DNA from: Candidatus Latescibacterota bacterium
Lineage (GTDB): Bacteria; Krumholzibacteriota; Krumholzibacteriia; LZORAL124-64-63
DNA: 64,000 nt
Direction of reading: 5' to 3'
Assembly (NCBI GenBank): GCA_030658975.1
Contig: JAUSBL010000002.1
Coordinates: forward strand, 353 to 64,352
In this document: in pieces, positions 22,859 through 43,610 of the stretch
Layout: every line of letters starts with the position of its first letter
Numbering within the stretch: the stretch's first letter is position 1
Translations under genes and position numbers: made by a program
The notes under the pieces: model-generated
The model's input: only the letters and a program-made list of their open reading frames with translations
The model's database searches: none
Told to the model about the DNA's origin: nothing

Positions 22859-23001
22859 AGGGGGCGCGCCGCCCTGGGATCTCCGTGAACCGGACGTGTT
22901 CCGTCGTGTCGCGGGAGGGCGCAGAATGCCTTCCTGCGGTGCGGGAGGTGAGCAATACGGAAGCAACGGAGGTCGGAATCTGGACGGGGGCGGCGCCCCC
23001 T
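22859..23001 (+). ncRNA. Candidate structured RNA of unknown family
   Basis: Four nested helices found by eye; G-U pairs favour the + strand; preceded by an AT-rich tract at 22797-22832. Confidence 0.35.
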
Positions 23002-23909
23002 CACACGAGGTAGATGTCGCAGGCGACGAAGAGCAGCAGGAGCATCCCGATCCAGGAATTGATGGTGAAGAACGCCCGGTCGATGCGGCGCAGGTCCCCG
23101 CCCCTGACCAGTCGGTGCTCCCAGATCAGCAGCAGCGTCATCGCGACCAGGCCCAGACGCGCGCACAGGCCCAGGTCCGCCGTCACGCCGAAGGCCGGCG
23201 CCGTGCGAAAGGCGATCGCGAGGCACAGCACGGCCAGCACGTGCAGCCCCTTGGCGATGCCCAGCGCGCCGGGCACCCCGAAGCGGACCGCCAGGGAGCG
23301 CAGCCCCTCGCGCCGGTCGATCTCGACGTCCTGGCAGCCGTAGATCGCGTCGAATCCGCCGACCCAGAGCATCACGCCCGCCGACAGCCACAGCGGGAAC
23401 GCGGCGAAGTGGCCCGTGGCCGCCAGCCACGCGCCCGTCGGCGCGATGCCCAGGCCCAGTCCCAGCACCAGGTGCGACCAGGGCGTGAAGCGCTTGGCGT
23501 AGGAGTAGCCGAGGACCACCGTCAGCGCGACCGGCGCGAGCGCGAAGCACAGCGGGTTGAGAGTGCGGGCGGCCAGCACGAAGATGAGCGCGCTCGCCGC
23601 CGTGAACGTGACCGCGCCGGCCACGCCGATCCGGCCCGCGGGCAGATGGCGGTCGGCCGTGCGCGGGTTGCGCGCGTCGTAGTCGCGGTCGGCGAGACGG
23701 TTGAAGGCCATCGCCGCGCTGCGCGCGGCGATCATCGCCACCAGCACGCCCAACAGGACGCGCCGCGAGGGGCGACCGCCGGTGGCGACCAGCAGCGCGA
23801 TCAGGGCGAACGGCAGGGCGAACACGGTGTGTTCGAACTTCACCAGCCCGAAGTAGTCGCCCGCGGTGCTCCAGCCGCGTCGGCGCGGCGCGGCGGCTCC
23901 CGCCCTCAC
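23001..23909 (-). CDS. UbiA-family prenyltransferase (MqnP-like)
   Basis: VKFEHTVFALPFA, AMAFNRLADRDYDARNPRT..RHLP, GFDAIYGCQD; GTG overlaps the ubiX stop. Confidence 0.9.
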   Translation of the reverse strand: MRAGAAAPRRRGWSTAGDYFGLVKFEHTVFALPFALIALLVATGGRPSRRVLLGVLVAMIAARSAAMAFNRLADRDYDARNPRTADRHLPAGRIGVAGAVTFTAASALIFVLAARTLNPLCFALAPVALTVVLGYSYAKRFTPWSHLVLGLGLGIAPTGAWLAATGHFAAFPLWLSAGVMLWVGGFDAIYGCQDVEIDRREGLRSLAVRFGVPGALGIAKGLHVLAVLCLAIAFRTAPAFGVTADLGLCARLGLVAMTLLLIWEHRLVRGGDLRRIDRAFFTINSWIGMLLLLFVACDIYLV

Positions 23910-24538
23910 GCCGTCTCCCCCGGCCCGCCCGCATCGCCCCACGGCCGCGCGAGGCGGACCGCGACGCCCAGCTGGTCGCAGACGCGCTGCACGACGAAGT
24001 CGACGAGGTCCCGCACCGTCGCCGGCCGGTGGTAGAAGCCGGGCATCGCCGGCAGGATGACGGCGCCGGCGGCGGCGAGCCGGGCCATGTGCTCGAGGTG
24101 GTGGACCGCCAGGGGGGTCTCGCGCGGCACGAGCACGAGGCGGCGCCGCTCCTTCAGCTGCACGTCGGCGGCGCGGTGCAGCAGGTCGTCGCCGGTGCCG
24201 GTGGCGATGCGGGCCAGCGTGCTCATCGAGCAGGGGCACACCGCCATGCCGCCCGAAGGCGCCGAGCCGCTGGCGACCGGCGCGGAGAACTCGTGCTTGC
24301 CGTACTCGTGCAGCGCTGCGCCGCGGGCGACGGCCGTCGACCGCAGCTCCTCGATGAGCGCGCGCGGCGTGCGGCCCAGTTCGGCGGCCGCCGTCTGCTC
24401 GACGGCGTCGCTGCGCAGCAGCGCCACGTCGCGGCCCGCCTCCAGCAGCACCTCCACCAGGCGCACGCCGTAGACCAGGCCGCTGGCGCCGGTCCAGGCG
24501 ACCGTGACCGGGGGCTGCGGGATCCGTTCGCGGTCCAT
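23906..24538 (-). CDS. ubiX: Flavin prenyltransferase UbiX (MqnM-like)
   Basis: TGASG, ASGS, PCSMSTL, RAADVQLKERRRLVLVPRETP, PAMPGFY. Confidence 0.92.
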   Translation of the reverse strand: MDRERIPQPPVTVAWTGASGLVYGVRLVEVLLEAGRDVALLRSDAVEQTAAAELGRTPRALIEELRSTAVARGAALHEYGKHEFSAPVASGSAPSGGMAVCPCSMSTLARIATGTGDDLLHRAADVQLKERRRLVLVPRETPLAVHHLEHMARLAAAGAVILPAMPGFYHRPATVRDLVDFVVQRVCDQLGVAVRLARPWGDAGGPGETA

Positions 24539-24548
24539 GGCTCTCCCC

Positions 24549-25337
24549 TCAATCGGTGGTCCCGAGACGCCCGCCGATCAGGTGGGCGATCCCGAGGGTC
24601 TGGCGGCGTACCAGGATGTCCCGGAAGCCGAACTCGCCGAGCAGCGCCGCGAACTCCGCCGGGGTCACGAAGCGGTCGCGGCTGGCGGCGAGGTAGGCGT
24701 AGGCGGCGTGGTCGCGGCCGAGCAGCCGGCCCGCCAGCGGCAGCGCCAGGTCCAGCCCGCGGCGCAGCGGCCGGGCGGCGCCGCGGTCCGCGCCCGCGGC
24801 GGTCGGGTCGTCGCGGAAGAAGTCGAGCACCAGCAGGCGACCGCCGGGCCGCAGGATCCGGCGCATCTCGGCCAGCCCGCGGCGCAGGTCGGCCAGGTTG
24901 CGCACGCCGAAACCGACGGCGACCGCGTCGGCGCAGCCGTCGCGCAGCGGGAGCGCCTGCGCGTCGGCGGCCACGGCGGGGATCTGCGCGCCGAGCCCCT
25001 TGCCGCGGCCGGCCGCCAGCATCGCGGGCGTGAAGTCGGCCGCCACGACCCGGCGGCAGCGGCCGCCGCGCAGGGCTGCGAGCCCCAGATCGCCCGTGCC
25101 CGCGCAGAGGTCCACCAGCAGGTCGGTGCCGGGATCCAGCGCGCGCACGAGGTCGCGCCGCCACGCGCGGTCGCGGTTGAAGCTCAGGGCGTGGTTCATG
25201 AAGTCGTAGATGCGCGCGATCCGCGCGAACATCGACCGCACGACGCGGTCGTGGGCGGCGGGGTCCTGCACGACACCGTCGCGGCCGCGCTCGTGGACGC
25301 CTTCGGGGACGCGTCGGGAGTGCCGGGCCTCACTCAC
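24549..25337 (-). CDS. ubiE: Ubiquinone/menaquinone methyltransferase (UbiE/MenG)
   Basis: MFARIARIYDFMNHALS, DLCAGTGDL, GFGVRN, ILRPGG. Confidence 0.88.
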   Translation of the reverse strand: MSEARHSRRVPEGVHERGRDGVVQDPAAHDRVVRSMFARIARIYDFMNHALSFNRDRAWRRDLVRALDPGTDLLVDLCAGTGDLGLAALRGGRCRRVVAADFTPAMLAAGRGKGLGAQIPAVAADAQALPLRDGCADAVAVGFGVRNLADLRRGLAEMRRILRPGGRLLVLDFFRDDPTAAGADRGAARPLRRGLDLALPLAGRLLGRDHAAYAYLAASRDRFVTPAEFAALLGEFGFRDILVRRQTLGIAHLIGGRLGTTD

Positions 25338-26881
25338 TTCGCGCGCCCCGCCAGCGCCAGCAGGTCGCGCCAGCGCTCCGCGACATCGCGCTTCACTTCC
25401 TCATCCATGCGCACGAGCGGCGGCCACTCGCGGCGGAAGCCGTCCTCACCCTCCCACTTCGCGGTGGCGTCGATCCCCATCTTGCCGCCCAGGAACTGCA
25501 CGTTCACGGCATGGTCGAGGTGGTCGACGGGACCGTCGACGAAGAACGTGTCGCGCCGGGGGTCGATGGAGTTGGTCACGCGCCACACGACTTCGCGCGG
25601 GTCGTGGACGTCGACGTCCGCGTCGACCACCACGATGGTCTTGCAGAACATCATCTGGCCCATGCCCCACAGCGCGTGGCAGACCTTGCGCGCGTGCCCC
25701 GGGTACTGCTTGCGGATCGCCACGATGGCCAGGTTGTGGAAGCAGGCCTCCGGCGGCAGGTGGTAGTCGACGACCTCGGGCAGCGGCTTCTGCATCAGCG
25801 GCAGGAACAGGCGCTCGGTGGCCCAGCCCAGCCACTTGTCCTCCATCGGCGGGATGCCCACGATGGTCGACGGGTAGACGGGGTCGCGGCGCGAGGTGAT
25901 GGCGGTCACGTGGAAGACCGGGAACTCCTCGGGCAGCGTGTAGAAACCGGTGTGATCGCCGAACGGCCCTTCACTGCGGCGCTCGCCGGGGTCGACGTAG
26001 CCCTCGATGACGAAGTCGGCCTCGGCCGGCACCTCCAGGTCGCAGGTCAGGGCCCTGGTCCAGGCGATCGGGGCGCCCTGCAGGAAGCCGGCGAACATCG
26101 ACTCGTCGATCTCCGGCGGCAGCGGCGCCGTCGCGGCGTAGGTCAGCGACGGCGGCCCGCCGAGCGCGACGCAGACAGGCATGCGCTCGCCGCGCCGCTC
26201 GCTGGCGCGGTAGTGGTCGGCGCCGGTCTTGTGCAGCTGCCAGTGCATGCCGGTGGTGCGGCCGTCGTAGACCTGCATCCGGTACATGCCGATGTTGCGC
26301 CGGCCGGTCTCGGGGTTGCGCGTGATGACCAGCGGCAGGGTGATGAACGGGCCGCCGTCCTGCGGCCAGGTCGTCAGCACGGGCATGAGGTCCAGGAGGC
26401 CGCGACGGTCCAGTTCCTCGCCGCGGACCACGACCTCCTGGCAGGGACCGCCGGCGACCGTGCGGGGCATGCCGGCGCTCCAGTCCCGGGCCTTGCCCAG
26501 CAGCTTCAGCTTCCCCCAGAGCCCCTCGGGGGGGGCGAGCTCCAGGGGCTCGCGCACCCGGGCGACGGCCTCCTCCAGGGACTCGCAGCCCAGGGCCCAG
26601 GCCATCCGGCGGCGCGAGGCGAACAGGTTCATGGCCAGGGGGACCGGCCGGCCGTCGGCCGTCGTGGCGCGGGTTGTGCGGCCGGCCCGCTCGCTCCAGC
26701 GACCGGGGCGCGGGTCCTCGAAGAGCAGGGCGGGACCCTCGCCGGCCTTGACGAAGCGGTCGGCGATCTCACCGGCCTCCAGGACCGGGTCGACGGGCTC
26801 CCGGACGCGCACCAGGTCGCCGGCCTGCTCGAGCAGGGCGATGAACGCCTTGAGGTTCCTGGCGGGAAGCTCGGCCATCAT
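25334..26881 (-). CDS. ubiD: UbiD-family menaquinone biosynthesis decarboxylase (MqnL-like)
   Basis: WPQDGGPFITLP, NIGMYRMQ, EGPFGDHTGFY, GGKMGIDAT. Confidence 0.92.
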   Translation of the reverse strand: MMAELPARNLKAFIALLEQAGDLVRVREPVDPVLEAGEIADRFVKAGEGPALLFEDPRPGRWSERAGRTTRATTADGRPVPLAMNLFASRRRMAWALGCESLEEAVARVREPLELAPPEGLWGKLKLLGKARDWSAGMPRTVAGGPCQEVVVRGEELDRRGLLDLMPVLTTWPQDGGPFITLPLVITRNPETGRRNIGMYRMQVYDGRTTGMHWQLHKTGADHYRASERRGERMPVCVALGGPPSLTYAATAPLPPEIDESMFAGFLQGAPIAWTRALTCDLEVPAEADFVIEGYVDPGERRSEGPFGDHTGFYTLPEEFPVFHVTAITSRRDPVYPSTIVGIPPMEDKWLGWATERLFLPLMQKPLPEVVDYHLPPEACFHNLAIVAIRKQYPGHARKVCHALWGMGQMMFCKTIVVVDADVDVHDPREVVWRVTNSIDPRRDTFFVDGPVDHLDHAVNVQFLGGKMGIDATAKWEGEDGFRREWPPLVRMDEEVKRDVAERWRDLLALAGRAK

Positions 26882-27031
26882 GAGACCTTTCGGGGAACGA
26901 GGCGCCACGACGGCGCCCGATGTGGTATATTCAGCAGAACGTAGCAGAGTCGTCCCCGGGCGGCAAGCAGGCCGGCAGGCCCGAGTCCGGGGTGTGTTTC
27001 CAGGCAACCGATCCGGGACATCGTCATTGTC

Positions 27032-27680: not shown

Positions 27681-28388
27681 ATGGTTACGACGGGCATGAC
27701 CGATCACGACGATCTGGAACTCCAGCTGAGCGAAACACGCATCGCGCCCCGGTCCGACCCCGCGCACCGGGAAGCGCTGCGCGCGGAGCTGCGGGCGCGG
27801 ATACGCAGCCGGCGGTCCGTGCGGCCCCTCGTCCTGGCCGCGATCGCGGTGGTGACGCTGGGTGCGACCTTCACCAACCAGCCGGCGCTGGAATCGACGG
27901 GCGTGAGGCTTGAAGTCGCCGGTATCGTCGACGACGGCTCCGCGACGTTCTCGACCCGCGAGGGTGCCCCTCCCAGCTTCATCTTCGGCCGCACCAACTC
28001 TTCGGTCAAACCGGAGGAACTCGCAAGCTTGAAACTGCGGTTGGAAGAGAAGCGCATGGCGTACATGGAGGGGCGTCTGGACCTGACCAGCGCCGCCGGT
28101 CTGACCTTCGAGGGGATGACTGCCTACTTTCTCGGCTATGGGGAAGACAGCGACGGATTCTACTTCCCGATCGATATCGGCAAGATCGAAGCCGGCGACC
28201 GGTACCACAGGTTCGTCACGAGCCCGCGCTATGCCGAGATCTGCAATCTGGCCTATCAGGGGAACCTAGCCGGCGCATCGACGGATACGATCATGCTCGA
28301 CGGACACGCGGTCGTGATGACGTCCTGGCGTTTGACGGAGCCGGAATTCGGCACCATCGTCTACCATCTGGGCACCCCGCTCAACTGA
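27681..28388 (+). CDS. Putative membrane-spanning anti-sigma factor
   Basis: Directly downstream of the ECF; short cytoplasmic helix (HREALRAELR), one TM segment, extracytoplasmic domain; start may be 27696. Confidence 0.6.
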   Translation: MVTTGMTDHDDLELQLSETRIAPRSDPAHREALRAELRARIRSRRSVRPLVLAAIAVVTLGATFTNQPALESTGVRLEVAGIVDDGSATFSTREGAPPSFIFGRTNSSVKPEELASLKLRLEEKRMAYMEGRLDLTSAAGLTFEGMTAYFLGYGEDSDGFYFPIDIGKIEAGDRYHRFVTSPRYAEICNLAYQGNLAGASTDTIMLDGHAVVMTSWRLTEPEFGTIVYHLGTPLN

Positions 28389-29844
28389 CGCTGCTATCCT
28401 TCAGGTGGTCCAGGGCGTGCGGGCCGCGCGCCAGCAGTTCCACCCACAGGCGCAACATCTCCTCGAATCCCTCGCGGACGGACTCGCAGGCCACCTGCGG
28501 CACGGCGCCGACGCGCCCGGTCTTCCTGTCGATCATCGCCGAAAAGCAGAGCCCGCAATGGCGCAGGGCCCAGCAGTCCGCGCAACGCCCGCCGAGGGCG
28601 TCGAACCAGTCCCGTTCGAGGCGGTCGATGGCGTCGAAATCGAAGCCGCGACGCACGTCGCCGAGGCCGAACGCCGTACCGACGCGCTCGCAGGGCTGCA
28701 ACGTGCCATCGCTGCCCACGTGCAGGCGGCGCAGTCCGGGCGCGCAGGCCCCGCCCGGCCGGAAGAATTCGCCCAGCGGTCGGGTGTCGCGGTGGTAGAA
28801 CCGGATCAGGGGACCGTCGAACCAGGAACGCACCAACGGCCCGAGGTCGGCGTGACGACCGGTCGCGCAGGCTTCGACGTAGGCGGCGCGGGCCCGCGCC
28901 CAACCGTCCTCCGCCGGTGGGGTCCCCAGCGGTGTCGACGGCAGGACGGCGTCATCCGCCCCTTCCAGATCGGCGTAGGATGCGCCTACAGGGAGGTCGG
29001 GAATTCCGAGTTCGCGTCCCAGTTCCCCGAAGAAGGAGTCAGCCTCCATCATGTCCGACCCCGGCGCGAGCGTCGCCTGGAAGCGCAGGCGTCCCGCGAC
29101 GGCCGGGTCCCGGTCGAGCAGACGCCGCATTCCGGCGAGCACCGCGGCGTGCGTGGGCCGTCCGCCGGCCGTGGGCCGCCAGCGGTCGTGGATCGCCTCC
29201 GGGCCGTCCAGGCTCACCTGCAGGTGCAGGCCCAGTTCGGCAACGAGTTCCACCATGGTGTCGTCCAGCAGGGTCCCGTTGGTGTCCAAGACGATCCGGA
29301 CCCGGGGGCGTCGCGAATCGCGGACCATCTGCGCGACCAGACGGATGAGACCGGGCGCCAGCAGCGGCTCGCCCCCGTAGAGCGAGATCGACGGCATCTC
29401 GCCGCCGGCGCGATCCAGGAATAGCCCGACGGCTGCACGCACCGTGTCCGACGACATCTGCCGGTCGCCGTGGGGCCGGGTCCAGGATGCGGCTAGCGTG
29501 TGCGGGCAGTAGGCGCAACGCAGGTTGCAGCGCTCGTCCAGGGTCAGGGTCAGCTGGGAAAGACGGTCCAGGTACTCGTCGCGACGTTCACGACCCTGCC
29601 GTTTCGGCGCCAGGCGGGGTCGCTGCGTCCTGAACAGGCCCAGCGCATCCCTCGCTTCCCTGATCTCCTGCTCCGCGGCCGAGTCGCCGGCCAAGCCACC
29701 AGGATCGGATACCTGAGCATCCAGCCGGGCGGCGACCGCCGGTGATACGGACGCGACCTGATCGGTCCCGGCATCGTAGACGTAGTCCTGGCCGCTCTGC
29801 CGCCAGACCCGGCAGATTGCGCGGCCTGGGTCAGGCGCGACCAC
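28381..29844 (-). CDS. Radical SAM/SPASM peptide maturase (CcpM-like)
   Basis: CNLRCAYC, YGGEPLL, TNG, VSLDGP; SPASM GGACAPGLRRLHV..PCER..CADCWALRHCGLC..C; N-terminal YVYDAGT RRE-like segment. Confidence 0.88.
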   Translation of the reverse strand: MVAPDPGRAICRVWRQSGQDYVYDAGTDQVASVSPAVAARLDAQVSDPGGLAGDSAAEQEIREARDALGLFRTQRPRLAPKRQGRERRDEYLDRLSQLTLTLDERCNLRCAYCPHTLAASWTRPHGDRQMSSDTVRAAVGLFLDRAGGEMPSISLYGGEPLLAPGLIRLVAQMVRDSRRPRVRIVLDTNGTLLDDTMVELVAELGLHLQVSLDGPEAIHDRWRPTAGGRPTHAAVLAGMRRLLDRDPAVAGRLRFQATLAPGSDMMEADSFFGELGRELGIPDLPVGASYADLEGADDAVLPSTPLGTPPAEDGWARARAAYVEACATGRHADLGPLVRSWFDGPLIRFYHRDTRPLGEFFRPGGACAPGLRRLHVGSDGTLQPCERVGTAFGLGDVRRGFDFDAIDRLERDWFDALGGRCADCWALRHCGLCFSAMIDRKTGRVGAVPQVACESVREGFEEMLRLWVELLARGPHALDHLKDSSVS

Positions 29845-30016
29845 GCTTGCCGAGGATGGTCGGTAACGCTTTGGGGTCGTTGCTGGGCGATCTCGTCGGT
29901 TTGTTGACGACGGAATCGCCAGCCGCGCAACCGCAGATGCAATCGCAGTTGCACGCCCCGTCGGTGATGGATGTCCGGGTTTCGGGGCGGTGGTCCGGCT
30001 CGACGATTTTGATCAT
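29831..30016 (-). CDS. Cys-rich RiPP precursor peptide (61 aa, CxCxCxCxC core)
   Basis: GGGAGA RBS about 9 nt before ATG 30016 (alternative start 30025); MIKIVEPDHRPETRTSITDGACNCDCICGCAAGDS...; stop overlaps the rSAM start. Confidence 0.75.
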   Translation of the reverse strand: MIKIVEPDHRPETRTSITDGACNCDCICGCAAGDSVVNKPTRSPSNDPKALPTILGKRGRA

Positions 30017-30369
30017 GCGGCTCATTCTCCCGGTGGCCGGGCGAGGGCCTTCAACAGCATACACTTACCGCGGCTGCCAAATGTGAAAATAATGCGGATT
30101 GACTGTGAAACCATGCAACGTTTCATCGTCTCGGTACTTGTATGTGTTGTCGGAGAAGAGTTCGGGGGGACAAACCATTCCAAGTGACATCGGGATTCCG
30201 AAACACTGTGCGAAGCTCTAGTGAGTCGCGAACCTACCTTCCCCCCGTACTCTTGGCCGGAACTTCCTTTTCGAGAATGACCTACGGGCGAGGGCCATTC
30301 GGGGGAGTTCCGGCCTTCCTCTTCCTTCCAGCAGTGCAGGCGGGGGTCGAGAGGGCGAGGCGCCGCTGA

Positions 30370-31155: not shown

Positions 31156-31752
31156 TTACTGCGAATACAGGTTTTTGACCTCGCCCCAGGTCCCCTGCTC
31201 GTCGGCGTCGCCGTTGTTCAGGGTGAACACGGGCCGGTCGAAGTCGCCGCTGCAGACGGTCGCGGGCGTATTGACCCCGAGCGTGTGGAGGTAGCCGGGC
31301 GTCCCGTCGGGGAAGCTGGCCGAACCGGGCGCCGGCCCCACCTTGAAGAACAACGGGCCCTCTCCCAGCAGCTTCACGGTCATGTAGAGCAGCGGCACCA
31401 TGCCGGCGCTGTTCGGCATCAAGCCGTCCACGCCCAGTCCCACCAGAAAATCGTCAGTATCGTTGTCGAAATCCATACCGGCGGTCAGTGTCCAGTTGCC
31501 CACATAGGTGGCCGACCCTTCGACGGTCACGCGGGCTTCCCAGCCCAGAACCGGCGATCCCGAAGGCTGGGCGAGCACCAGATAGACGGTGCAGGACCCC
31601 GGCACGGCCACCTCGACATTCCCGCCGCCGGGCCCGGACGTAACGTCGGTGCAGATGCAGAACACGTCGGACTCGGCCGAAGCGGCGGCGGCCGCGCCGA
31701 GCGTCAGCACGAAGACGAGTACGAGGGCGGGGCGTGGGTAACGCATCGGCAT
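31156..31752 (-). CDS. Secreted single-domain protein (FCIC-domain) with WG tail
   Basis: Signal peptide; VFCICTD..PSG..VLGWEAR..GYLHTLG.NTPATVC.GDF; ends QGTWGEVKNLYSQ. Confidence 0.8.
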   Translation of the reverse strand: MPMRYPRPALVLVFVLTLGAAAAASAESDVFCICTDVTSGPGGGNVEVAVPGSCTVYLVLAQPSGSPVLGWEARVTVEGSATYVGNWTLTAGMDFDNDTDDFLVGLGVDGLMPNSAGMVPLLYMTVKLLGEGPLFFKVGPAPGSASFPDGTPGYLHTLGVNTPATVCSGDFDRPVFTLNNGDADEQGTWGEVKNLYSQ

Positions 31753-31852: not shown

Positions 31853-34174
31853 TCAGCGCACCAGGCTCAACCTCACCACCGCGCCCGACGCGGCCCCGTC
31901 CACGTACAGCGCCGCGAAGTACGCGCCGCTGGCGACGTCGCGGCCCCGCTCGTCGGTGCCCAGCCACGTGACGCGGTTCTCCCCTGCCACGCCGTCGATC
32001 GCCCCGAGCCGCTTCACCACGCGGCCCTGCACGTCGTGGATCCGCACCTCGGCCCTGCCGGCCCGCGGCAGCGTCAGCACGATCTCGGTGCGCGGGTTGA
32101 ACGGGTTCGGCACCGCGCGCAGCGCGCAGCGCCCCGACGGGATCTCCGGCGCGCCGGTCGACAGGTCCGGCGTGCGCAGGCGCACGATCACCGGTACGGC
32201 GCCGACGTCGAGGGTCAGGCTCGACTGTGCACGCATCGACATCACCGCGACGCGGTTCTGGTGGGGCAGGTAGACCTGCAGGTCCTCGTGGCCGCCCCAC
32301 TCCGCGGCGTCCCAGCGCAGCGTGACCGGACCGGGCGCAGGCGCGGTGACCACGAGGTCCCAGGCCACGTCCGCTTCGGTCGCCGCGCGGTAGTCGGCCG
32401 TGAGCTGGTCTCCGGTGCTGAGGTCCAGGGCCGAGCCGTCGAGCCACAGTTCGGGCCGGGACACGGCGGCCGGCGCGCGCGGCGGGCGGGGCTGGTCCCA
32501 GGCGGGGTCGAAGCCGTCGTTGGCCTTTTCGAGGCGCCCGACGGTCAGGGTCTCGGGGCTGCCGTCGAGGCCGAGGCTCAGGCGCCAGTTGAGGTCGTTG
32601 GGCTCGAAGGCGGGAGGGGCGGACTTGTCGGCGCCGATGTTGGTGTAGTGGAACCACAGGCTGACGCCGTTCATGTAGGCGGGCACCCAGTAACCGTGCC
32701 AGGGATGGAGAGTGGTCCGGGCCACGTAGGAGCCCGTCGAGTTCTGATAGAAATAGACGTAGCTCCCGACGAGTCCCATCTGGACCGCCGTCGCGTAATC
32801 GTAGCGCGCGCCCTGGTACTCGACCGCGACATCGTTGAGGCTCATGACCGTCCACAGCGGCGCGCCGAGCAGGTTCCAGCCGTTGGCCAGGGGCAACAAG
32901 GCGCCGTTGAGGTCACGCATCCCCTCCATCGTCCAGGTGATGGGGCTGGTCGCGCCCACCCAGTAGCCCCGGCCCTGCTGCATGGGGTCGGTCGACAGCA
33001 TCTGCTGGTAGCCCGTATTTCCGTTGTGGCCGTAGACGAACGCGGTGCTGGCGATGTCGTCCAGCAGCACGGAGCCGATGGTGCCCGGCGCGTCCGGCAG
33101 CAGGGGCATGCCCACCAGGGACCAGCCGGTCGGCAGCAGGAGTGACGTCGGACTGAGAGGTGGGATCTGGTTCGGCCCCACCAGCAATTCGAAATGACGG
33201 ACCTGCCCGGGCACGGAATTGAACGAATAGCTGAGGGCCGTTTCCCAGAGAAGCGCAACCTCGCCCGTGTCGAGGTCGATCAGTGTCATCACCCAGTTCG
33301 ACGCCTGATTGAAGCTGGGCTGGAACGTAAGCGTCGCGACACCGCTCTGGTCGGTCAGGAAGCGCAACGGCCAGGTCTTGACCGTGGCCGACGGCACATA
33401 GGAGGCCCGGATGTCCGTCCGGAAGAACTCGCCCAGCGGCGAAGCCCACTCCGCATGCGGGAAGCACAGCGAAACGTAGCCCGCAGGCGGGGCCGGCGGT
33501 TCGGGGATGTCCAGGTTCGGATCCAGCCCGTCCGTCGCGGTCTCCCCCATGCCGGCGACATTGTTCAGATCACGGTACGCGCCGAGCGCCGCCGCGACCG
33601 TCAATGTGAATTCGTCCTCGAAGGGCGGAGGATTGTTCCCGTTGATGCTGAAGACCGGCGAATTGAAATCGCCGCCGCACACGGTCGCCGGCGTGTTGTA
33701 ACCGAGCGTGTGCACGTAGCCGGGGGTGCCCTGGGGAAAGGAGACCGATCCCGGGATCGGCCCGATGAAGAATTCGATGCTGGCGCTGCCGTTCACGATG
33801 ATGGCCTGCATCGAACCCAGCACGATGACGTCCTGCGCGTTGGGGACCAGCGGCGAAGCCCCGTTGCCGATGACGAAATCCTGGGGGTCGCTGTCGACGT
33901 CCAGTCCGGACATCATCCACGTGCCGATCATGCTCGTGGCATTCGTCTGGGTGATCCTGGCCTCCCAGGCCAGAACGCGGCCGCCGCTCGGATTGAGAAG
34001 GCACAGGTAGATGTTCGTCGGCACGAAGATCGGGATGTCGGCGTTGCCGCCGCAGCTGGCGGGGGCCGTCGGGTCGATGCAGATGCAGAAGGCGTCCTGC
34101 TGCGCGAGGGCGCCGCCGGCCGTGGTCAGCAGGACCATGGCGATCGTCAGCAGGAAGCGGATCGAAGTTCGCAT
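31853..34174 (-). CDS. Secreted multidomain protein (FCIC-domain, two D.PxPP modules) with FlgD/T9SS-like CTD
   Basis: GGAGG RBS; signal peptide; QQDAFCICIDP; ATDGLDPNLDIPEPP; GWNLLGAP; PNPFNP..WLGTD..ASGAY. Confidence 0.85.
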   Translation of the reverse strand: MRTSIRFLLTIAMVLLTTAGGALAQQDAFCICIDPTAPASCGGNADIPIFVPTNIYLCLLNPSGGRVLAWEARITQTNATSMIGTWMMSGLDVDSDPQDFVIGNGASPLVPNAQDVIVLGSMQAIIVNGSASIEFFIGPIPGSVSFPQGTPGYVHTLGYNTPATVCGGDFNSPVFSINGNNPPPFEDEFTLTVAAALGAYRDLNNVAGMGETATDGLDPNLDIPEPPAPPAGYVSLCFPHAEWASPLGEFFRTDIRASYVPSATVKTWPLRFLTDQSGVATLTFQPSFNQASNWVMTLIDLDTGEVALLWETALSYSFNSVPGQVRHFELLVGPNQIPPLSPTSLLLPTGWSLVGMPLLPDAPGTIGSVLLDDIASTAFVYGHNGNTGYQQMLSTDPMQQGRGYWVGATSPITWTMEGMRDLNGALLPLANGWNLLGAPLWTVMSLNDVAVEYQGARYDYATAVQMGLVGSYVYFYQNSTGSYVARTTLHPWHGYWVPAYMNGVSLWFHYTNIGADKSAPPAFEPNDLNWRLSLGLDGSPETLTVGRLEKANDGFDPAWDQPRPPRAPAAVSRPELWLDGSALDLSTGDQLTADYRAATEADVAWDLVVTAPAPGPVTLRWDAAEWGGHEDLQVYLPHQNRVAVMSMRAQSSLTLDVGAVPVIVRLRTPDLSTGAPEIPSGRCALRAVPNPFNPRTEIVLTLPRAGRAEVRIHDVQGRVVKRLGAIDGVAGENRVTWLGTDERGRDVASGAYFAALYVDGAASGAVVRLSLVR

Positions 34175-34951: not shown

Positions 34952-35599
34952 TCACCTGCCCGCAGACGGGCCCGCCGAATACGCACTCTTGATCGCACCC
35001 CAGGTATCGACGTCCGCCGCGACGACGCCATTGATGCTGAACACCGGCTCGTCGAAGTCGCCGCTGCAGACGGTGGCTGGTGTGTTGAATCCCAGCGTGT
35101 GGACGTAGCCCGGAACGCCCTGGGGGAAACTGATGGAGCCGGGGATCGGGCCGACGAAAAAACTGACCGGGACGCCGTCATCCAGGACCCTGACCATCAT
35201 GGAGGCGAACGTGATGACGCCCGCTGCGTTCGGCTGCCAGGGCGCGGGGCAGGAGCCGACCACGAAATTCCCAGGCACGGAGTCGACATCCAAACCGCCG
35301 TTGAGGCACCACTCGCCAGAGATGGTATCGGCTCCTCTGTCGTCGGTCACTCGGGCTTCCCAGGCCAACACCTGATCCCCGCTGGGTTCGAGCAGGCACA
35401 GCCAGATGGGCGTCGGCACGCCGACGGGGATCACGGCATTGCCGCCGCAGGTGTTCGGGTCCGTGGGATCGAGGCAGATGCAGAAGGCGTCCTGCTGCGC
35501 CGAGGCGCCGCCGGCCGCCGCCAGCACCGCGATGACGAGAAGAGGGATGAACGGGATGCGGCTGTGCGTGAGAGCATTCCAAGGACGCCGATGATCCAC
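34952..35599 (-). CDS. Secreted single-domain protein (FCIC-domain) with WG tail
   Basis: GTG at 35599 after GGGAG; QQDAFCICLDP...; ends VDTWGAIKSAYSAGPSAGR. Confidence 0.78.
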   Translation of the reverse strand: MDHRRPWNALTHSRIPFIPLLVIAVLAAAGGASAQQDAFCICLDPTDPNTCGGNAVIPVGVPTPIWLCLLEPSGDQVLAWEARVTDDRGADTISGEWCLNGGLDVDSVPGNFVVGSCPAPWQPNAAGVITFASMMVRVLDDGVPVSFFVGPIPGSISFPQGVPGYVHTLGFNTPATVCSGDFDEPVFSINGVVAADVDTWGAIKSAYSAGPSAGR

Positions 35600-35707
35600 G
35601 ATCGACTCCCATCCACGCGGACGCGCGGGCGCCCGGCGCTGTCCCGGGTGTGTGTCGGATCGGGCGAATCGACTTCTTGAGGTTACCAATTCACCTGGGA
35701 CAAAGCA

Positions 35708-35736
35708 AGCGCCCCGCCCATCGGGGGCGGGGCGCT
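35708..35736 (-). terminator. Intrinsic terminator after the giant metalloprotease gene
   Basis: AGCGCCCCGCCC...GGGCGGGGCGCT stem, followed by TGCTTTG on the minus strand. Confidence 0.6.
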
Positions 35737-35766
35737 CACGCGGATCCGCGCGACTGGAACCGTCGT

Positions 35767-38700
35767 CTATTTGACGAGGGTCAGTTTGAGCAGATCCTCC
35801 CCTCCCCCCGCCGATCGCAGGCGCACCATGTAGATGCCGCTGGGGACGCGTTTCCCCGCGTCGTCCAGGCCGTTCCAATCCGCGACGTGGCGGCCCGCCG
35901 CCGCCTCGCCGTCGAAGAGCGTCCGGATCTGCCGCCCGCGCACGTCGTGCACGGTCAGCTCGCAACGCCCGGCCCGGGCCACCTCGTACGCGACCTCGGT
36001 CGACGGGTTGAACGGGTTCGGGGTCGCGGCCACCAGACGCGAGGCGACCACGGCGCCCGGTACGGGCTCGCCGTCTTCGATTCCGGTGACGTCCTGCCCG
36101 ACCGTCACCTGCCAATCGCCGTCCAAGGCTGCGGAAGTCCCGTCGGTGCGCCAAACCACGAGCGCGAATTCGCTCGGCGCCCCGGTGGCGGGGACCGTCA
36201 CCGCGAAGGTCGCTTCTTGGGTGCCTGTCTCGGGCGTCTGCCAGGCGATGCCGTCCAGCCAGGGCTCCGTCTTGCCCGTGGCGCCGAAGCTGAAATCGTG
36301 CAGGGAGAAGCCCAGTTCGACGTCGGTGCTCCGGAGCGAGAAGACGTAGGTCCCCTCCGGCAGGTCCAGCCGGATGGCGTCGAGGTAGCTGCCGGCTTCC
36401 ACGGTGCCCGAAAGCCGCCGGCCGACCGGGCTCGCCCAGGAGTCGGTGGTCGTCTTGGTGGCCAGGGTGTAGGTCCCGGTCGACGAGTTGCCGGCGCGGA
36501 CGACGCCGAGGTTGAAGGTGGCCGTCCCGTGCGGCAAGACGCCGCGCAGCACGAAATCGCAGCCCGGTCCGCTCCACTGCGACAGGGCGTAATCCGACGT
36601 GTACCCGTCCTGCACGTTGGCGTTCGCGTAGATCCCCAGATCCACGTCGAGCACGTCGTCCCACGCGTAGGCGGCGACGATCGTGGACACGGTCGGCATC
36701 ACCGGCGTGCTCGGCCGGTAGCCGTCGCAGTTCAGGGCCACGGTGCCCGCGGTCACCAGGGCGAGGCCGCCGAACGGGTTCGCGGGCGCAGGCAGCTGGT
36801 AGGTCGTGTTCGCCGTCAGGGTCTGGGCGGACCAGACCCACTGCCGGCCGTGCCGGTTGTTGGTCCAGTCGTCCTCGTCGATGCGACCGTTGCCGTTGAC
36901 GCTGTGGGTGAGCGCGTGGCGGCCGCCCCGGACGTTCAGCAGGGTGCTGCGCACGGCCTTGACGACGTGGGACGGCGAGATCTCCTCGATGAAGGTCCCG
37001 TTCAGGAAGTTCGTGCCGTCCAGGTAGAGGACGTGGTTCAGCCCCATCGGGATCGGAGCCTCGGCGCTCTCGTTGCTCAGCGACCAGTAGATGCCGGTCG
37101 CCGCGCTGTTGCCGGTGAGCGACGTCGGGGCCGGGATGTCATCCACGTCGGCGTCGTACGGCGTGCCGATCTGGGGCACGACGTTGGCGAACCAGCCCTC
37201 GGGCACGATGGTCGCCGGGTCGGACTTCGCGCGGTAGGCGAAGACCGTGTACGGCGACGAGCCGGCGGGACGGGGATCGCGGGTGACCACCGTCAGCGCC
37301 ATCTCGCCCGGCGGCAGCAGCACGCTGTGGTGCACCGTGTCGCCGGCCGCGGCCGTGACGAGGGCGTCGGCGTTCGCCAGGGACCCCACGCCGAACCCCG
37401 GCTCGAAGAAGCGCAGCTGCAGGTCGCGCGTGCTCCCGTTGGCCAGCTTGATCGTGAACCACGCCTCCTCGTCGAGCTCGTTATAAGTCAGGTAGAAGTC
37501 CAGGCAGTCGGCGGCCGACAGCGACCCGGACAAGGTGTCCGGCATGGCGAAGAACTCCCCGATCTCGCGGTGGATGCGGTAATCGGCGCCGCTGCCCTCG
37601 TCGTCCAGGACGCCGACGCAGTAGTTGGTCATGATCGTCTCGGAGGGGTTCTGGATGACGACCGCCGGCAGGTCGGCGCGGCTGGTCGACGTCGCCAGCG
37701 GCGTGGTGAACCCGGTCTGGTTGAAGTCGTGCGGGTGCAGGCGCAGCACGATCCGGTTGCTCGCGTCGTCGGGCACGGCCCAGACCAGTTCGGGAAAGAG
37801 ACAGAGTTCGATCTCGAAACCGTCGCCGTTGGGATAGAACGTGGTGCCGGCGGGCAGCATCCCGTGGCCGGCGGTCGCGTCGGGCAGGCCGCCCGCGCGC
37901 GCGATCGTCTCGCCCAGATCCAGGTCCTGCGGCGCGAAGACGAACTGCTTGGCGTAGATGTTGTTGTCCTCGTTGGACTCGGCCGCGTTGTCGAGGCCGT
38001 CCTCGCGCACCCACACGGTGTGGCGGCCGATCGCGCCCAGGTTCACGGGCCCGTTGTTGCGCGGGGCGTTCGTGACGCCGGCGTTGAGCAGGCGGATGGT
38101 CGAGGTGTAGACCGGGTTGCCGTCGAGGTACATCACGTCCACGAAGTTCCCCGAGGTGCCGGTGCCGACGTTGCGCTCGCCCCAGTTGAAGTAGACGCTG
38201 CTGCCGTTGACCAGGCTGGTCTGCAGCACCGGGTTCGGAGCCGCCACCGTGACGTTGCGCAGCACCAGCGGCGCCGTCCAGCCGGTCGGGGTCATGGGCT
38301 CGAGATCGGAGGGGCCCGGCGCGATGATCACGATCGGCCCGTAGTAGCTGGCGATGTTGCTCCAGCGCCCGGCGCGGTCCACGGCGAGGACCGAGAAGTA
38401 ATAGGTGCCGGGCGCGAGCTGCTCTTCGGGCTCCCACCACAGGTTGGTCGTGTCGATCACGCGGTCGGGCGTCAGCGTGTGCCCCTCGGTCAGCTGGACG
38501 CTGTAGGCGCAGACGCCCGACATGTCGTCCCAGGGCCGCTGCCAGTGGAAGGCGCCGTTGGCGATCTGCGTGGGCGTGCTGATGGGGAACGACGCGGTCA
38601 GGCCCGGCACCGGCCCGGGCGACTGTTCGTCGATCTGCAGGTCGAAGTTCCAGGCCGTCTCCCAGAGCATGGCGCGCGTGGCCTGCGGCGAGCCGAGCCC

Positions 38701-40236
38701 GTCGAGGTACTCGGCCGCGCAGCGGAAGAAGCCGGGGGCGCGGTAGGGCTCGTGGCCCTCGATGTCGCAGTTCTGGGCCATGATGTTCAGGATGTCGACG
38801 GTCTCGAGATCGAGTTGGTCGTAGACGTCGGCGCCCAGGGCGTCGGTGCGGAAGTGATCCGTCTCGGTGCCGTAGTCGTCGTCGGCCATGTCCCAGGCGG
38901 CGCCGGCGAACGCGTTCTCGATGCTCCAGGCATCCCAGGCGCAGCCGGGGCTGTCGTTGACCGAACCGACGTCGTTGTGCACCACGGCGAAGTCGACCAG
39001 TCCGGCGAGGTGGTCGGTGCAGAGCCGGCTGATGATCTGCGCGCAGCCCTCGATCCAGGCCACGGCGAGATCCTCGGGGCACCACGCGCAGTGGCCGCAG
39101 TCGTCGCCGTCGTCGCAGATGCCGTTGCAGTAGTCGATGCTGACGGTGTGGGCGTGCGCGGCGTGCCAGTAGTGGCCCCATTCATGGCAGATCGTTGCGT
39201 CGGACCAGGCATCTGCGCGCTCGAGGTGCAGTTCGTCGTAGTAAGGGGTGTAGAAGCTGCCGTCGTCGTCCGGCCACTGCACGTCGACGCGGTTCACGTC
39301 CCAGCCCAGGTCCCGGAAATAATTGTGGGCGTAGGTGATGTCCGTGCAGATGTGCAGGGCGCCGTGGTGCGAGGTGGGGAAGACGATGGCGGCGTTGTAG
39401 CTGGTGAAGTTCGCGGGCAGCGTGTAATTCGTCGTCGTCCAGGTGTAGTTGTCCTCCCAGATGCCGTCCTCCTGCACCACCACGGCGTTGCTGGTGGCCG
39501 CCATGCAGATGCGGAAGGTGCACCCGGCGGGGACGTCGATCTCGAAGCGGCCGAACTCGTTCACGCGCTGCGACCCGACCGAGTAGGGCCAGCCGGACTC
39601 GGGAAGCACCTGGATCCAGACGGTGGCGCCGAAGGCCGGCAAAAGCCTGCTCTGGGTATCGTGCAGGTACCAGAGGTTGCCGTAGACGTTGCAGGTCGTG
39701 CGATCCTTGTCGACAGGCGCGGCAGGCGGCGGCTCGTCGGCGGCCAAGGCCGTCAGCTCGGCCATCGTCAGCTGCGGCGTCCCCTTGAACTGATCGCCCC
39801 CGGCCGCCCGGATGCGGCGCGGCGGCACCAGGTCGCTGTCGGTGGGCAACAGGCCGTCGTAGGCCTCGCGCGAGGGATCGAAGCTCCTGCGCCACGGCTT
39901 GCCGTTCACCAGGGCCGACAGCACGAGCGGCCCGAAACCGGCGTCCGGCGTGGCCGTCAGCGCCCAGCGCACCGAGCCGCCGGCGGCGAGCGTCAGGTCG
40001 CGCGAACCCTCCCAGCGGGAGACCGTCCAGCCCTCGCCTTTGATCTCGACCTCGCTCAGGGTCGCGTCGGCCGCGGCTTCGATCGTCACGGCAGTGGCGA
40101 ACTCCCGGCCCGCTTCGGCGAAGCGCTGCGGGCGTTCGCAGTGGGCCTTGATCGGAATCTGGACGATGTCCGCCAGGGACGGCCCCGCGATCGTCAGCAG
40201 GACCGCACAGATCGGCAGCAGTTTCACTCTGCGCAC
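35767..40236 (-). CDS. 1489-aa secreted zincin-type metalloprotease-like protein with CARDB/Fn3-like domains and FlgD/T9SS-like CTD
   Basis: Signal peptide; HEWGHYWH..AWIEG; ESNEDNN (CARDB-like); PNPFNP..WNGLD..SGIY. Confidence 0.8.
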   Translation of the reverse strand: MRRVKLLPICAVLLTIAGPSLADIVQIPIKAHCERPQRFAEAGREFATAVTIEAAADATLSEVEIKGEGWTVSRWEGSRDLTLAAGGSVRWALTATPDAGFGPLVLSALVNGKPWRRSFDPSREAYDGLLPTDSDLVPPRRIRAAGGDQFKGTPQLTMAELTALAADEPPPAAPVDKDRTTCNVYGNLWYLHDTQSRLLPAFGATVWIQVLPESGWPYSVGSQRVNEFGRFEIDVPAGCTFRICMAATSNAVVVQEDGIWEDNYTWTTTNYTLPANFTSYNAAIVFPTSHHGALHICTDITYAHNYFRDLGWDVNRVDVQWPDDDGSFYTPYYDELHLERADAWSDATICHEWGHYWHAAHAHTVSIDYCNGICDDGDDCGHCAWCPEDLAVAWIEGCAQIISRLCTDHLAGLVDFAVVHNDVGSVNDSPGCAWDAWSIENAFAGAAWDMADDDYGTETDHFRTDALGADVYDQLDLETVDILNIMAQNCDIEGHEPYRAPGFFRCAAEYLDGLGSPQATRAMLWETAWNFDLQIDEQSPGPVPGLTASFPISTPTQIANGAFHWQRPWDDMSGVCAYSVQLTEGHTLTPDRVIDTTNLWWEPEEQLAPGTYYFSVLAVDRAGRWSNIASYYGPIVIIAPGPSDLEPMTPTGWTAPLVLRNVTVAAPNPVLQTSLVNGSSVYFNWGERNVGTGTSGNFVDVMYLDGNPVYTSTIRLLNAGVTNAPRNNGPVNLGAIGRHTVWVREDGLDNAAESNEDNNIYAKQFVFAPQDLDLGETIARAGGLPDATAGHGMLPAGTTFYPNGDGFEIELCLFPELVWAVPDDASNRIVLRLHPHDFNQTGFTTPLATSTSRADLPAVVIQNPSETIMTNYCVGVLDDEGSGADYRIHREIGEFFAMPDTLSGSLSAADCLDFYLTYNELDEEAWFTIKLANGSTRDLQLRFFEPGFGVGSLANADALVTAAAGDTVHHSVLLPPGEMALTVVTRDPRPAGSSPYTVFAYRAKSDPATIVPEGWFANVVPQIGTPYDADVDDIPAPTSLTGNSAATGIYWSLSNESAEAPIPMGLNHVLYLDGTNFLNGTFIEEISPSHVVKAVRSTLLNVRGGRHALTHSVNGNGRIDEDDWTNNRHGRQWVWSAQTLTANTTYQLPAPANPFGGLALVTAGTVALNCDGYRPSTPVMPTVSTIVAAYAWDDVLDVDLGIYANANVQDGYTSDYALSQWSGPGCDFVLRGVLPHGTATFNLGVVRAGNSSTGTYTLATKTTTDSWASPVGRRLSGTVEAGSYLDAIRLDLPEGTYVFSLRSTDVELGFSLHDFSFGATGKTEPWLDGIAWQTPETGTQEATFAVTVPATGAPSEFALVVWRTDGTSAALDGDWQVTVGQDVTGIEDGEPVPGAVVASRLVAATPNPFNPSTEVAYEVARAGRCELTVHDVRGRQIRTLFDGEAAAGRHVADWNGLDDAGKRVPSGIYMVRLRSAGGGEDLLKLTLVK

Positions 40237-40631: not shown

Positions 40632-40775
40632 GGCGTCACTCCGGGATGCGGGTGGGTGCATACCCCTGGAAAACGAGACGGCAGAATCGTTTAGTTTCAT
40701 GGAATTGATCGATGGGAAGGATCGGCGAGGCTCCCGGGGGGCGCCTGATCCTATAGGTATAATATTATCAAAAGA

Positions 40776-43484: not shown

Positions 43485-43610
43485 TTCTGGTGGCTCCCGG
43501 CGGGGATGGTCGGCTCCTCGACGCGGATCGAGGCTACCATGCCCGAACGGGCTTGCCCACGCACCGGTGCGCTGCGGCGGAGAAAATCTCGCGGTGAAGA
43601 GGCGAGCGGA

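Follow-up and report, generated by a model that had tools for sequence, protein, structure and literature searches.

Results

Gene content of the locus

The DNA analyzed here (the window) is a 64,000-nucleotide stretch of contig JAUSBL010000002.1 from a Candidatus Latescibacterota bacterium (assembly GCA_030658975.1, positions 353 to 64,352 of the forward strand). It carries a small gene for a cysteine-rich peptide, the putative precursor of a ribosomally synthesized peptide with post-translational modifications (RiPP), and, overlapping it, a gene for a radical S-adenosylmethionine (SAM)/SPASM enzyme (rSAM in gene orders). As listed in Table 1, a methyltransferase (MTase) gene lies upstream of these two genes, and an extracytoplasmic function (ECF) sigma factor gene and a gene for an anti-sigma-like membrane protein approach them from the opposite side.

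Table 1. Genes and other features of the peptide locus in the window
Feature	Position	Strand	Details
ECF sigma factor, 214 aa	27032..27676	plus	Ends 4 nt before the anti-sigma-like gene
Anti-sigma-like single-pass membrane protein, 235 aa	27681..28388	plus	ATG 27681; 230 aa if ATG 27696
Radical SAM/SPASM enzyme, putative peptide maturase, 487 aa	28381..29844	minus	GTG at 29844, stop 28381-28383
Precursor peptide gene, 61 aa	29831..30016	minus	ATG at 30016, TGA at 29831-29833
Lower-GC intergenic region, 353 nt	30017..30369	minus	Upstream of the precursor; GGGAGA, TATGCT
Class I SAM-dependent methyltransferase, 212 aa	30370..31008	minus	Co-oriented, 353 nt upstream of the precursor

The precursor peptide and its relatives

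The peptide starts with the leader MIKIVEPDHRPE..., which is followed by the core CNCDCICGC (residues 22-30), the residues AAGD, and a Pro/Lys/Arg-rich tail of 27 aa. Its stop codon overlaps the start of the radical SAM gene. The 14-nt overlap and the five alternating cysteines agree exactly with an earlier reading of this sequence (the original prediction), and an overlap of 13 or 14 nt is retained in the 5 same-genus loci. A Shine-Dalgarno-like GGGAGA is located 9 nt 5' of the ATG. An alternative in-frame ATG, 9 nt 5' of this start, was disfavored because it crowds the GGGAGA motif and because the peptides of other genera align from the downstream Met. When the source genome was searched with a profile of 12 precursors, a single copy of the gene was found and no further ones.

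The sample of related loci comprised the 30 best loci (the present one and L084-L112) with 1.5-kb flanks. A small open reading frame (ORF) with at least four alternating cysteines was situated directly upstream of the radical SAM gene and co-oriented with it in 12/30 loci, and a homologous small ORF with a relaxed CxCxC pattern was present within 1.5 kb in 26/30. Relative to the radical SAM gene, these ORFs were upstream and co-oriented (12), upstream and divergent (4), downstream and co-oriented (9), or downstream on the opposite strand (1). No CxCxC ORF was found within 1.5 kb of the radical SAM gene in L089, L091, L092, and L101; for two of these four loci, a genome-wide profile search recovered peptides 1.5-1.6 kb away (G104 and G117). 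The peptide profile matched 52 genomes (E<=1e-5), of which 50 also carried the enzyme, and the matches in the two genomes without the enzyme sit at contig ends.

The members of the peptide family are 50-71 aa long, start with M-[IYFH]-[KRE]-[KI]-[LVI]-[ED], carry the Cys run from approximately 20-30 residues in, and end with a tail of 25-35 residues. An alignment of 34 peptides had no invariant columns other than Met1 and the three Cys of CxCxC. The majority of the peptides have CxCxC only, together with a C-terminal [YH]-[FWY]-[DE]-[ILV]-N-G motif approximately 25 residues downstream of the Cys run. The peptide of the window belongs to a subclade (type A) with 4-6 alternating cysteines, then x-x-G-D, and a differing tail. 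What the original prediction missed is that the family has CxCxC as its minimal conserved core, the five-Cys form being one subclade. None of 12 precursors matched any NCBIfam model at E<=10, and no match to the relevant Pfam models, bacteriocin families included, was obtained among the 34 precursors, apart from one weak match to Pfam CXCXC (E=0.12).

Since high-GC sequence gives many spurious ORFs, a reading frame of this size could have arisen by chance. We consider this explanation practically negligible and reject it. Besides the conservation in 26/30 loci and the invariant cysteines, the Cys codons vary between TGC and TGT within the genus with the Cys residue fixed, the ratio of nonsynonymous to synonymous substitution rates (dN/dS) is 0.15-0.73 and thus below 1 in 10/10 within-genus pairs, and the Shine-Dalgarno-like motif precedes the start. 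Therefore, the small ORF is a real, selected gene that is paired with the enzyme.

The radical SAM/SPASM enzyme

The enzyme matched Pfam Radical_SAM with a score of 56.8 against a cutoff of 29.5, and its CxxxCxxC motif is formed by C106, C110, and C113. These residues were invariant in 31 aligned homologues, as were C367, C385, C421, C424, C430, and C453, and C433 was at least 90% conserved. The SPASM pattern reads C367-x12-G-x4-C385 ... C421-x2-C424-x5-C430-x2-C433 ... C453, with seven cysteines for two auxiliary clusters. No eighth SPASM Cys was present in the 31-homologue alignment, and the conserved set amounts to 3 + 7 cysteines. The CxxxCxxC motif and the full SPASM set that had been claimed for the enzyme are thus borne out by its homologues.

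The closest solved structure was CteB (PDB 5WGG), which the enzyme profile matched across residues 7-480 (E=1e-58). The AlphaFold model of the enzyme had a mean predicted local distance difference test score (pLDDT) of 90.7, and its top Foldseek match was again CteB (E=1e-20; TM score, 0.63/0.71); ChlB, anaerobic sulfatase maturase (anSME), SkfB, SuiB, and TigE were among the further matches. A paper linked to ChlB (PDB 9gm3) concerns a triceptide. The N-terminus of the model contains strands at residues 11-16, 19-24, and 29-33, followed by helices at 35-46 and 55-68, and residues 11-68 are predicted to be an RRE (RiPP recognition element)-like domain of three strands and two long helices. The claim that a precursor is paired with a SPASM maturase is supported, the enzyme having RRE-like, radical SAM, and SPASM domains.

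From the alignment to CteB, C106, C110, and C113 were assigned to the radical SAM cluster. For the auxiliary clusters, a HMMER alignment to CteB was combined with the ligand list in the excerpted text of PMC10177961, which gave C367, C385, and C433 for auxiliary cluster 1 (AC1) and C421, C424, C430, and C453 for auxiliary cluster 2. Since AC1 has only three protein ligands, an open iron site is expected there. The same excerpt reports that a substrate Se or Cys ligates an Fe-S cluster in PapB and Tte1186, with a Se-Fe contact. This contact was assigned to AC1 through site-directed variants of Tte1186, and the PapB cluster is described as likely AC1.

In a large protein collection, 573 matches to the enzyme were found; the close ones shared 70-91% identity, and a broad shell shared approximately 40%. 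In a survey of the phylum with one genome per species (208 genomes; threshold, E<=1e-30), the enzyme was present in 62/208 genomes, in 56/90 of the host family f1, and in 5/6 of the host genus. According to habitat labels only, the host family is found in groundwater and sediment metagenomes. A profile search of genome contigs with the enzyme returned mostly unrelated SPASM enzymes, and the best match came from a Candidatus Krumholzibacteriia metagenome-assembled genome (MAG) with 30% identity.

Relationship to named maturase families

The original prediction had likened the enzyme to CcpM. The best NCBIfam match was indeed CcpM (TIGR04068). However, the score of 171.9 bits, obtained in two stretches, was far below the cutoff of 500, which two clostridial enzymes used as positive controls passed (L005, 515.0 bits; L009, 500.7 bits). 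The other scores were 141 bits for RumMC, 128 for the lachnocin maturase, 114 for QhpD, 101.5 for PapB, 69 for SCIFF, and 65 for anSME, and every named NCBIfam maturase family scored the enzyme far below its cutoff. None of the 12 precursors matched TIGR04065 (CLI_3235 precursor; cutoff, 26 bits) at E<=10, whereas the L005 precursor scored 31.7 bits as a positive control. When the precursor alignment was compared with this true CLI_3235 precursor by hhalign, the probability was 1.9%. A protein-language-model search placed the peptide nearest to CLI_3235 precursor clusters (0.90; 180 shared features), which we take as a lead only.

A quick maximum-likelihood IQ-TREE search was carried out on 50 enzymes. 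In the resulting tree, 41 rows formed a clade of their own (support of 100 in the SH-aLRT branch test; stem length, 1.17), apart from the CcpM-like enzymes L004-L011. Forty of these rows are from family f1 and one is from a sister family. Within the tree, 12 of the 13 type A rows formed a subclade (97), and the thirteenth, L107, grouped elsewhere.

The score of 171.9 against 500 bits, the precursors without a TIGR04065 match, and the separate clade rule out membership in CcpM. What is left of the proposed likeness is that CcpM is the best-scoring named family. Two further candidates were rejected: anSME (TIGR03942), with 65.2 against 349 bits, an RRE-like domain in the enzyme, and no sulfatase among the neighbors; and QhpD (TIGR03906), with 114.2 against 453 bits and no qhp genes among the neighbors. 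The enzyme represents a CteB/CcpM-like maturase family that is so far unnamed and has a CxCxC precursor family to itself. Absence of a conserved Cys-rich upstream ORF in homologues and clustering with anSMEs had been named beforehand as outcomes that would speak against the interpretation. The homologues keep the ORF and the enzyme is not among the anSMEs, and the interpretation therefore survives both tests.

Peptides with alternating cysteines were also seen beside more distant enzymes. Upstream of CcpM-like enzymes that score below the cutoff, a DCNCICY peptide was found in a Halothermothrix MAG (L008, 5678-5806; 371 bits) and a CVCQSMCLCSC peptide in a Candidatus Krumholzibacteriia MAG (L004, 5645-5830; 341 bits). 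Alternating-Cys cores thus recur around the enzyme superfamily outside Clostridia. Downstream of a distant CcpM-like radical SAM gene (195 bits) in a Planctomycetia MAG (L011, 7124-8541), there are three tandem small ORFs, each with a (CX)4C-type run straight after the first Met; if these starts are correct, the arrangement would be of the follower type. Two of the C-termini read ...LKFL(R/Q)NAIAELVIVD and the third has the related ...AIAGLEIVDE.

It is conceivable that the enzyme carries out a chemistry other than thioether formation, such as oxidation of Cys to a formylglycine-like residue as by anSME, C-C or C-O crosslinking, epimerization, or another sulfur transformation. SPASM maturases of very similar fold catalyze diverse reactions, as the presence of anSME, SuiB, TigE, ChlB, and SkfB among the fold matches illustrates, none of the named families comes near its cutoff, and full-length similarity mispredicted StsB as MftC-like in the case described in the excerpted PMC10288494. 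Nevertheless, we regard this explanation as unlikely. Besides Met1, the cysteines alone are invariant in the peptide, and thioether synthases (CcpM-like, RumMC, lachnocin, QhpD, PapB, and CteB) account for the best matches in both sequence and fold. Moreover, a seven-Cys SPASM domain with a three-ligand AC1 is linked to ligation of the substrate Cys in the PMC10177961 excerpt, and anSME, besides its low score, has no RRE-like domain of the kind seen here.

Predicted complex of enzyme and peptide

The complex of enzyme and peptide was modeled in three runs. The interface score ipSAE was 0.89, 0.83, and 0.83 (median, 0.83), compared with 0.00, 0.01, and 0.00 for three control complexes. In the calibration of the modeling tool, this mark had been reached by 58/80 solved complexes and 2/110 mismatched pairs; these counts are only roughly valid here because our own alignments were used for the complex model. 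The runs agreed in at least 29% of contacts, and the pLDDT of the partner was at least 42. In the model, peptide residues 1-11, 13, and 15 contact enzyme residues 21, 29-34, 37, and 60-70 and the C-terminal helix 467-482, and Cys24, Cys26, and Cys28 contact residues 350-355, 365, 367, and 373, beside the first AC1 ligand. The model supports the prediction that the enzyme binds the peptide with the leader on the strand of the RRE-like domain. Since CteB-leader and similar complexes have already been solved, the pass may partly be recall of likeness.

These results also bear on the possibility that the peptide is an unmodified, metallothionein-like binder of metal or Fe-S and that the enzyme acts on another substrate. 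CxCxC is a classic metal-binding motif, the weak Pfam CXCXC match mentioned above points the same way, and no peptidase or exporter was found among the scanned ORFs (see below). However, the peptide gene overlaps the enzyme gene by 14 nt, an arrangement kept across the genus, and the peptide follows the enzyme through several rearrangements. Furthermore, the enzyme possesses an RRE-like peptide-binding domain, and the modeled complex holds up against its controls. We thus judge a plain metal binder to be very improbable.

The ECF sigma/anti-sigma-like pair

The sigma factor scored 91 bits on TIGR02937 (cutoff, 42.9) and exceeded the cutoffs of Pfam Sigma70_r2, r4, and r4_2. It remained below the cutoff of every specific ECF subgroup, the best being TIGR02952 (116 vs 206). 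The anti-sigma-like gene is convergent with the radical SAM gene, and the stops of the two genes overlap by 8 nt. Its product has a short Cys-free cytoplasmic N-terminus, one transmembrane helix, and a conserved alpha/beta extracytoplasmic domain of approximately 130 aa; residues 104-230 were modeled confidently, and the transmembrane helix and linker were modeled poorly. Position and topology fit a class I-like single-pass anti-sigma factor. No Pfam or NCBIfam anti-sigma domain and no family match was found for this protein, and an atlas search gave RsmA_C only, at 0.79. For the extracytoplasmic domain, the best Foldseek match was the Cache-type ligand-binding domain of a chemoreceptor (E=3.4e-3), and the best VIA-align Z was 4.5, so that a PAS/Cache-like fold is a weak lead from the model.

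As shown by gene clustering in 21 loci (the present one and 20 larger loci), an orthologous sigma gene lies within approximately 3.4 kb of the enzyme gene in 18/21, with shared LEIEKKWL...FRWQG motifs. The original prediction had called the locus minimal. This label is misleading, because the orthologous ECF sigma/anti-sigma pair that it overlooked is a near-constant neighbor. Four gene orders were distinguished: type A, MTase> peptide> rSAM> <anti-sigma <sigma (source genus, L116, L117, and L122); type B, <PrkA rSAM> peptide> <anti-sigma <sigma (L118, L120, L124, L126, L127, and L130); type C, sigma> anti-sigma> <peptide rSAM> (L125 and L128); and type D, rSAM> sigma> anti-sigma> <peptide (L119, L121, and L131). 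In L131, by stop-to-stop ORF coordinates, approximately 12 nt separate the end of the radical SAM ORF from the beginning of the sigma ORF, and the latter shares 4 nt with the anti-sigma ORF, so that the three genes look like one operon.

The anti-sigma-like proteins are homologous across the locus types and make up one family. In a word-index-limited search, 19 homologues were matched, all of them hypothetical proteins of the same lineage with no Pfam domain. The family profile was found in 62/208 genomes of the phylum and in 60/90 of the host family. Among the 208 genomes, 53 carried both the enzyme and the membrane protein, 9 the enzyme only, 9 the membrane protein only, and 137 neither; 6 of the 9 membrane-protein-only matches lie at contig ends. 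As a separate observation, the sigma match of one genome (G167, L088/L115) is broken into three pieces in three frames and its anti-sigma match is split by a TAA, and the peptide and radical SAM genes of the same locus are intact; regulator decay or assembly errors may be the cause.

The linkage to the sigma/anti-sigma pair hints at a signaling or stress role beside or instead of an antibiotic one. In a possible, if doubtful, version of such a role, the crosslinked Cys peptide would be a signal or a redox/metal sensor of the ECF pair and hence a regulator rather than an antibiotic. As a signal, it might be a ligand for the anti-sigma extracytoplasmic domain (autoinduction); as a sensor, it might act inside the cell as a partner responsive to thiols or metals and contribute the cysteines absent from the anti-sigma N-terminus. 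In favor of such a role, the four genes stay together in spite of rearrangement into four gene orders, with the apparent operon in L131 and the co-occurrence counts given above, and the anti-sigma-like family was matched only in the same lineage. The precursor is present in one copy per genome with vertical-looking inheritance in 56/90 family genomes, and no exporter, peptidase, or immunity gene was found among the scanned ORFs. If the peptide is a signal or sensor, its single copy, the absence of these genes, and the vertical conservation across most of the family would all be explained. On the other hand, an interaction between the peptide and the pair is purely hypothetical, the peptide lacks a signal sequence and export would be required for a ligand outside the cell, some ECF pairs serve simply as pathway regulators of RiPP clusters, as in the case of MibX/MibW, and the fold search with the anti-sigma domain gave no clear sensor fold.

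The methyltransferase gene and upstream sequences

The methyltransferase is TehB/Methyltransf_25-like, with scores that are all below or near the cutoffs. It was found at the same position in every type A locus (13 genomes of the genera g1, g22, g3, and g10; 42-82% identity), separated from the peptide gene by 350-500 nt, and it had no match in the loci outside type A among those examined. The claim of a co-oriented methyltransferase gene upstream thus proved correct, and it extends as synteny to 13 genomes of 4 genera. This distribution would suit a role in tailoring that is peculiar to the multi-Cys subclade, and it could equally be inherited synteny.

Inspection by eye of the region upstream of the precursor revealed a TATGCT -10-like element approximately 45 nt before the ATG. 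An alignment made by eye showed that the upstream blocks TTGCAT and CCCCCC...CTCCGAC are conserved among members of the genus and, in part, in two other genera. A sigma-70 consensus scan of this region returned 0 sites, and no Rfam match was obtained between 26000 and 32000 at E<=1. The 22 sequencing runs listed for the region include none of RNA. The sigma genes are preceded by TGGTAT(A/C)AT-like extended -10 elements (by eye), and an ECF-type reading, GGAAC...CGT(C/A), fits only 2/6 type A upstream regions.

A different element was noticed in type B loci (L097, L098/L118, L100, L105, and L111/L120), where it is conserved approximately 60-150 nt upstream of the radical SAM gene, after a divergent PrkA gene. 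It consists of a TTGAC(T/G) -35, 17 nt, and a TGTGGTA(C/T)A(A/C)T extended -10; next come CTCGCCCAGGG and a GC-rich hairpin with a T run behind it (GGGAAGAGG...CCTCTTCCC-T7). The element has the look of a strong promoter with a terminator-like leader or a small RNA directly after it. The upstream region in the window has only the CTCGCCC(G)G piece of this element.

Neighboring genes in the window

A Pfam scan covered 16 large ORFs located from 12.2 to 49.6 kb, taken from 46 ORFs filtered by third-position GC, with three added from earlier lists. No ABC transporter or peptidase was found on these 16 ORFs, with the rest of the 46-ORF list and small genes lying outside the scan, nor on the 7 ORFs around the peptide locus. 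Within these scanned ORFs, the earlier statement that there is no exporter holds. Peptidase or exporter genes may be located in other parts of the genome. The large ORFs also encode secreted proteins with a FlgD_ig tail, a protein with LVIVD repeats, and a peptidyl-prolyl isomerase.

The nearest transporter to the peptide locus is an AcrB-family resistance-nodulation-division (RND) pump approximately 15 kb away (45102-49631, minus). Divergent from the sigma gene, a quinone biosynthesis cluster (23001-26890, minus) encodes a UbiA prenyltransferase, a UbiX-like flavoprotein, a UbiE methyltransferase, and a UbiD decarboxylase, and its synteny extends across the genus and to L116 and L122. Three ORFs on the minus strand (31156-31752, 31853-34174, and 34952-36841) encode paralogous secreted proteins with a common N-terminal domain (…DAFCIC.D.T…GGN…VLAWEAR.T…), and homologues of these proteins flank the module in same-genus loci. 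A C-terminal FlgD_ig domain is present on the ORFs 31853-34174, 12201-14564, and 35770-40635. A CHAT-domain protein with tetratricopeptide repeats is encoded at 40779-43610 (minus).

Discussion

Proposed function of the module

We consider it reasonably probable that the locus is a RiPP module, in which a precursor of approximately 60 aa and a CteB-like, thioether-forming maturase are accompanied by a dedicated ECF sigma/anti-sigma-like pair and, in one subclade, by a methyltransferase. The data show the genes with their conservation and co-occurrence, the cofactor motifs, and a predicted mode of binding; that thioethers form, which residues accept them, what the methyltransferase does, and whether a regulatory link exists are matters of inference.

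The maturation may proceed as follows. The leader (M-I/Y-K-K/I-V/L-E/D) would add a strand to the RRE-like N-terminal domain, and the central (Cys-X)n-Cys core would enter the enzyme barrel. There, the Cys thiolates could, one by one, ligate the open iron of auxiliary cluster 1 (C367, C385, and C433), and the 5'-deoxyadenosyl radical arising from SAM cleavage would take an H atom off an acceptor residue. Coupling of the carbon radical to sulfur would give one thioether per Cys, i.e., 3 in most relatives and 5 here, with a change of -2 Da each. The product would probably be a ladder or hairpin resembling the CxCxC...GxGxG sactipeptide StsA. By analogy with ranthipeptide synthases, which use Asp and Asn, the [YH]x[DE]xN motif of the three-Cys relatives could supply three alternate acceptors, whereas the acceptors in the five-Cys peptide cannot be guessed. 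The sigma/anti-sigma pair may either control transcription of the peptide and enzyme genes or respond to the product.

Several observations weigh against this interpretation. Twelve enzyme-positive genomes have no match to the peptide profile, some of which hold divergent Cys peptides (L129 and L132); L089 and L092 have no peptide within 1.5 kb, and L123 has none within 3 kb. Across the 34 aligned peptides, the residues between the cysteines vary freely, and the peptide of the window has no evident conserved acceptor pattern, only the GD after the last Cys being common to the multi-Cys type. The chemistry is deduced from homology to CteB at 18% identity, and the complex model leaves the fold of the peptide itself uncertain (pLDDT, 43-44). 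Neither a leader peptidase nor an exporter turned up among the scanned ORFs, which is unusual for a secreted RiPP. As for the regulators, no sigma gene lies near the enzyme gene in L123, L129, and L132, and the precursor promoter appears by eye to be housekeeping-like rather than ECF-like, which leaves sigma control of the precursor hypothetical. Finally, the related genomes are kin and the counts describe one lineage rather than independent events, which means that the counts overstate independence.

Radical SAM/SPASM enzymes acting on Cys peptides are of a known kind. The present family is unnamed and below all curated cutoffs, and its precursors are unmatched. With a 61-aa peptide and one enzyme, it offers a compact and tractable two-gene system for studying how up to five or six thioethers are placed on strictly alternating cysteines. 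If the peptide proves to be a signal or sensor, RiPP chemistry would be tied to extracytoplasmic-function sigma signaling, and a function would be given to a gene set that is conserved in most of an uncultured family.

Comparison with known systems

MibX/MibW is an ECF sigma/anti-sigma pair that regulates the microbisporicin RiPP cluster, and, like the locus described here with its anti-sigma-like protein, it provides a dedicated ECF sigma factor and a membrane anti-sigma factor encoded within a RiPP locus. The microbisporicin-type systems are large actinomycete lanthipeptide clusters with exporters and immunity genes, whereas the present module has four or five genes only and its anti-sigma-like family is unannotated. 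In the literature searched, no ECF pair was described as being coupled to a SPASM maturase.

To our knowledge, the clostridial CcpM/CLI_3235 system is annotated but has not been biochemically characterized. It shares with the present enzyme the architecture of RRE, radical SAM, and SPASM domains, and the precursor at a true CcpM locus (L005) also has CxC motifs approximately 22 residues from the N-terminus. However, the precursors described here have no detectable homology to CLI_3235 beyond the Cys motif, the host comes from an uncultured lineage with high GC, the C-terminal tail of the peptide is long, and a sigma/anti-sigma partner is present at the locus. The excerpted text of PMC9062424 places CcpM among 'previously annotated enzymes'.

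CteB, the maturase of CteA (the SCIFF ranthipeptide thermocellin; PDB 5WGG and 5WHY), is the closest solved structure by both profile and fold. The present enzyme has the 3 + 3 + 4 Cys ligand pattern in common with CteB, with which PapB and Tte1186 are grouped here, and the leader strand on the RRE-like domain is also shared, although here it is seen in the complex model only. The two enzymes differ in that their identity is 18%, the present enzyme scores 68.6 bits on the SCIFF model TIGR03974 against a cutoff of 425, the SCIFF core lacks a run of alternating cysteines, and the last SPASM Cys pair is CX2C in the present enzyme and CX3C in CteB.

The best chemical precedent for a Cys ladder is StsA of Streptomyces sparsogenes, in which, as the excerpted PMC10288494 describes it, CxCxC donors and GxGxG acceptors form three Cys-Gly sactionines in a nested hairpin. 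StsA was the only precedent for thioethers on strictly alternating cysteines in the literature searched. The CxCxC donors in the core are common to both peptides. In contrast, the GxGxG acceptors follow the Cys run of StsA after 4 residues and are absent from the peptide of the window, and StsB, which is MftC-like, has its RRE on a separate protein, StsC. Of the six unassigned groups of PMC10288494, one could in principle overlap the family described here.

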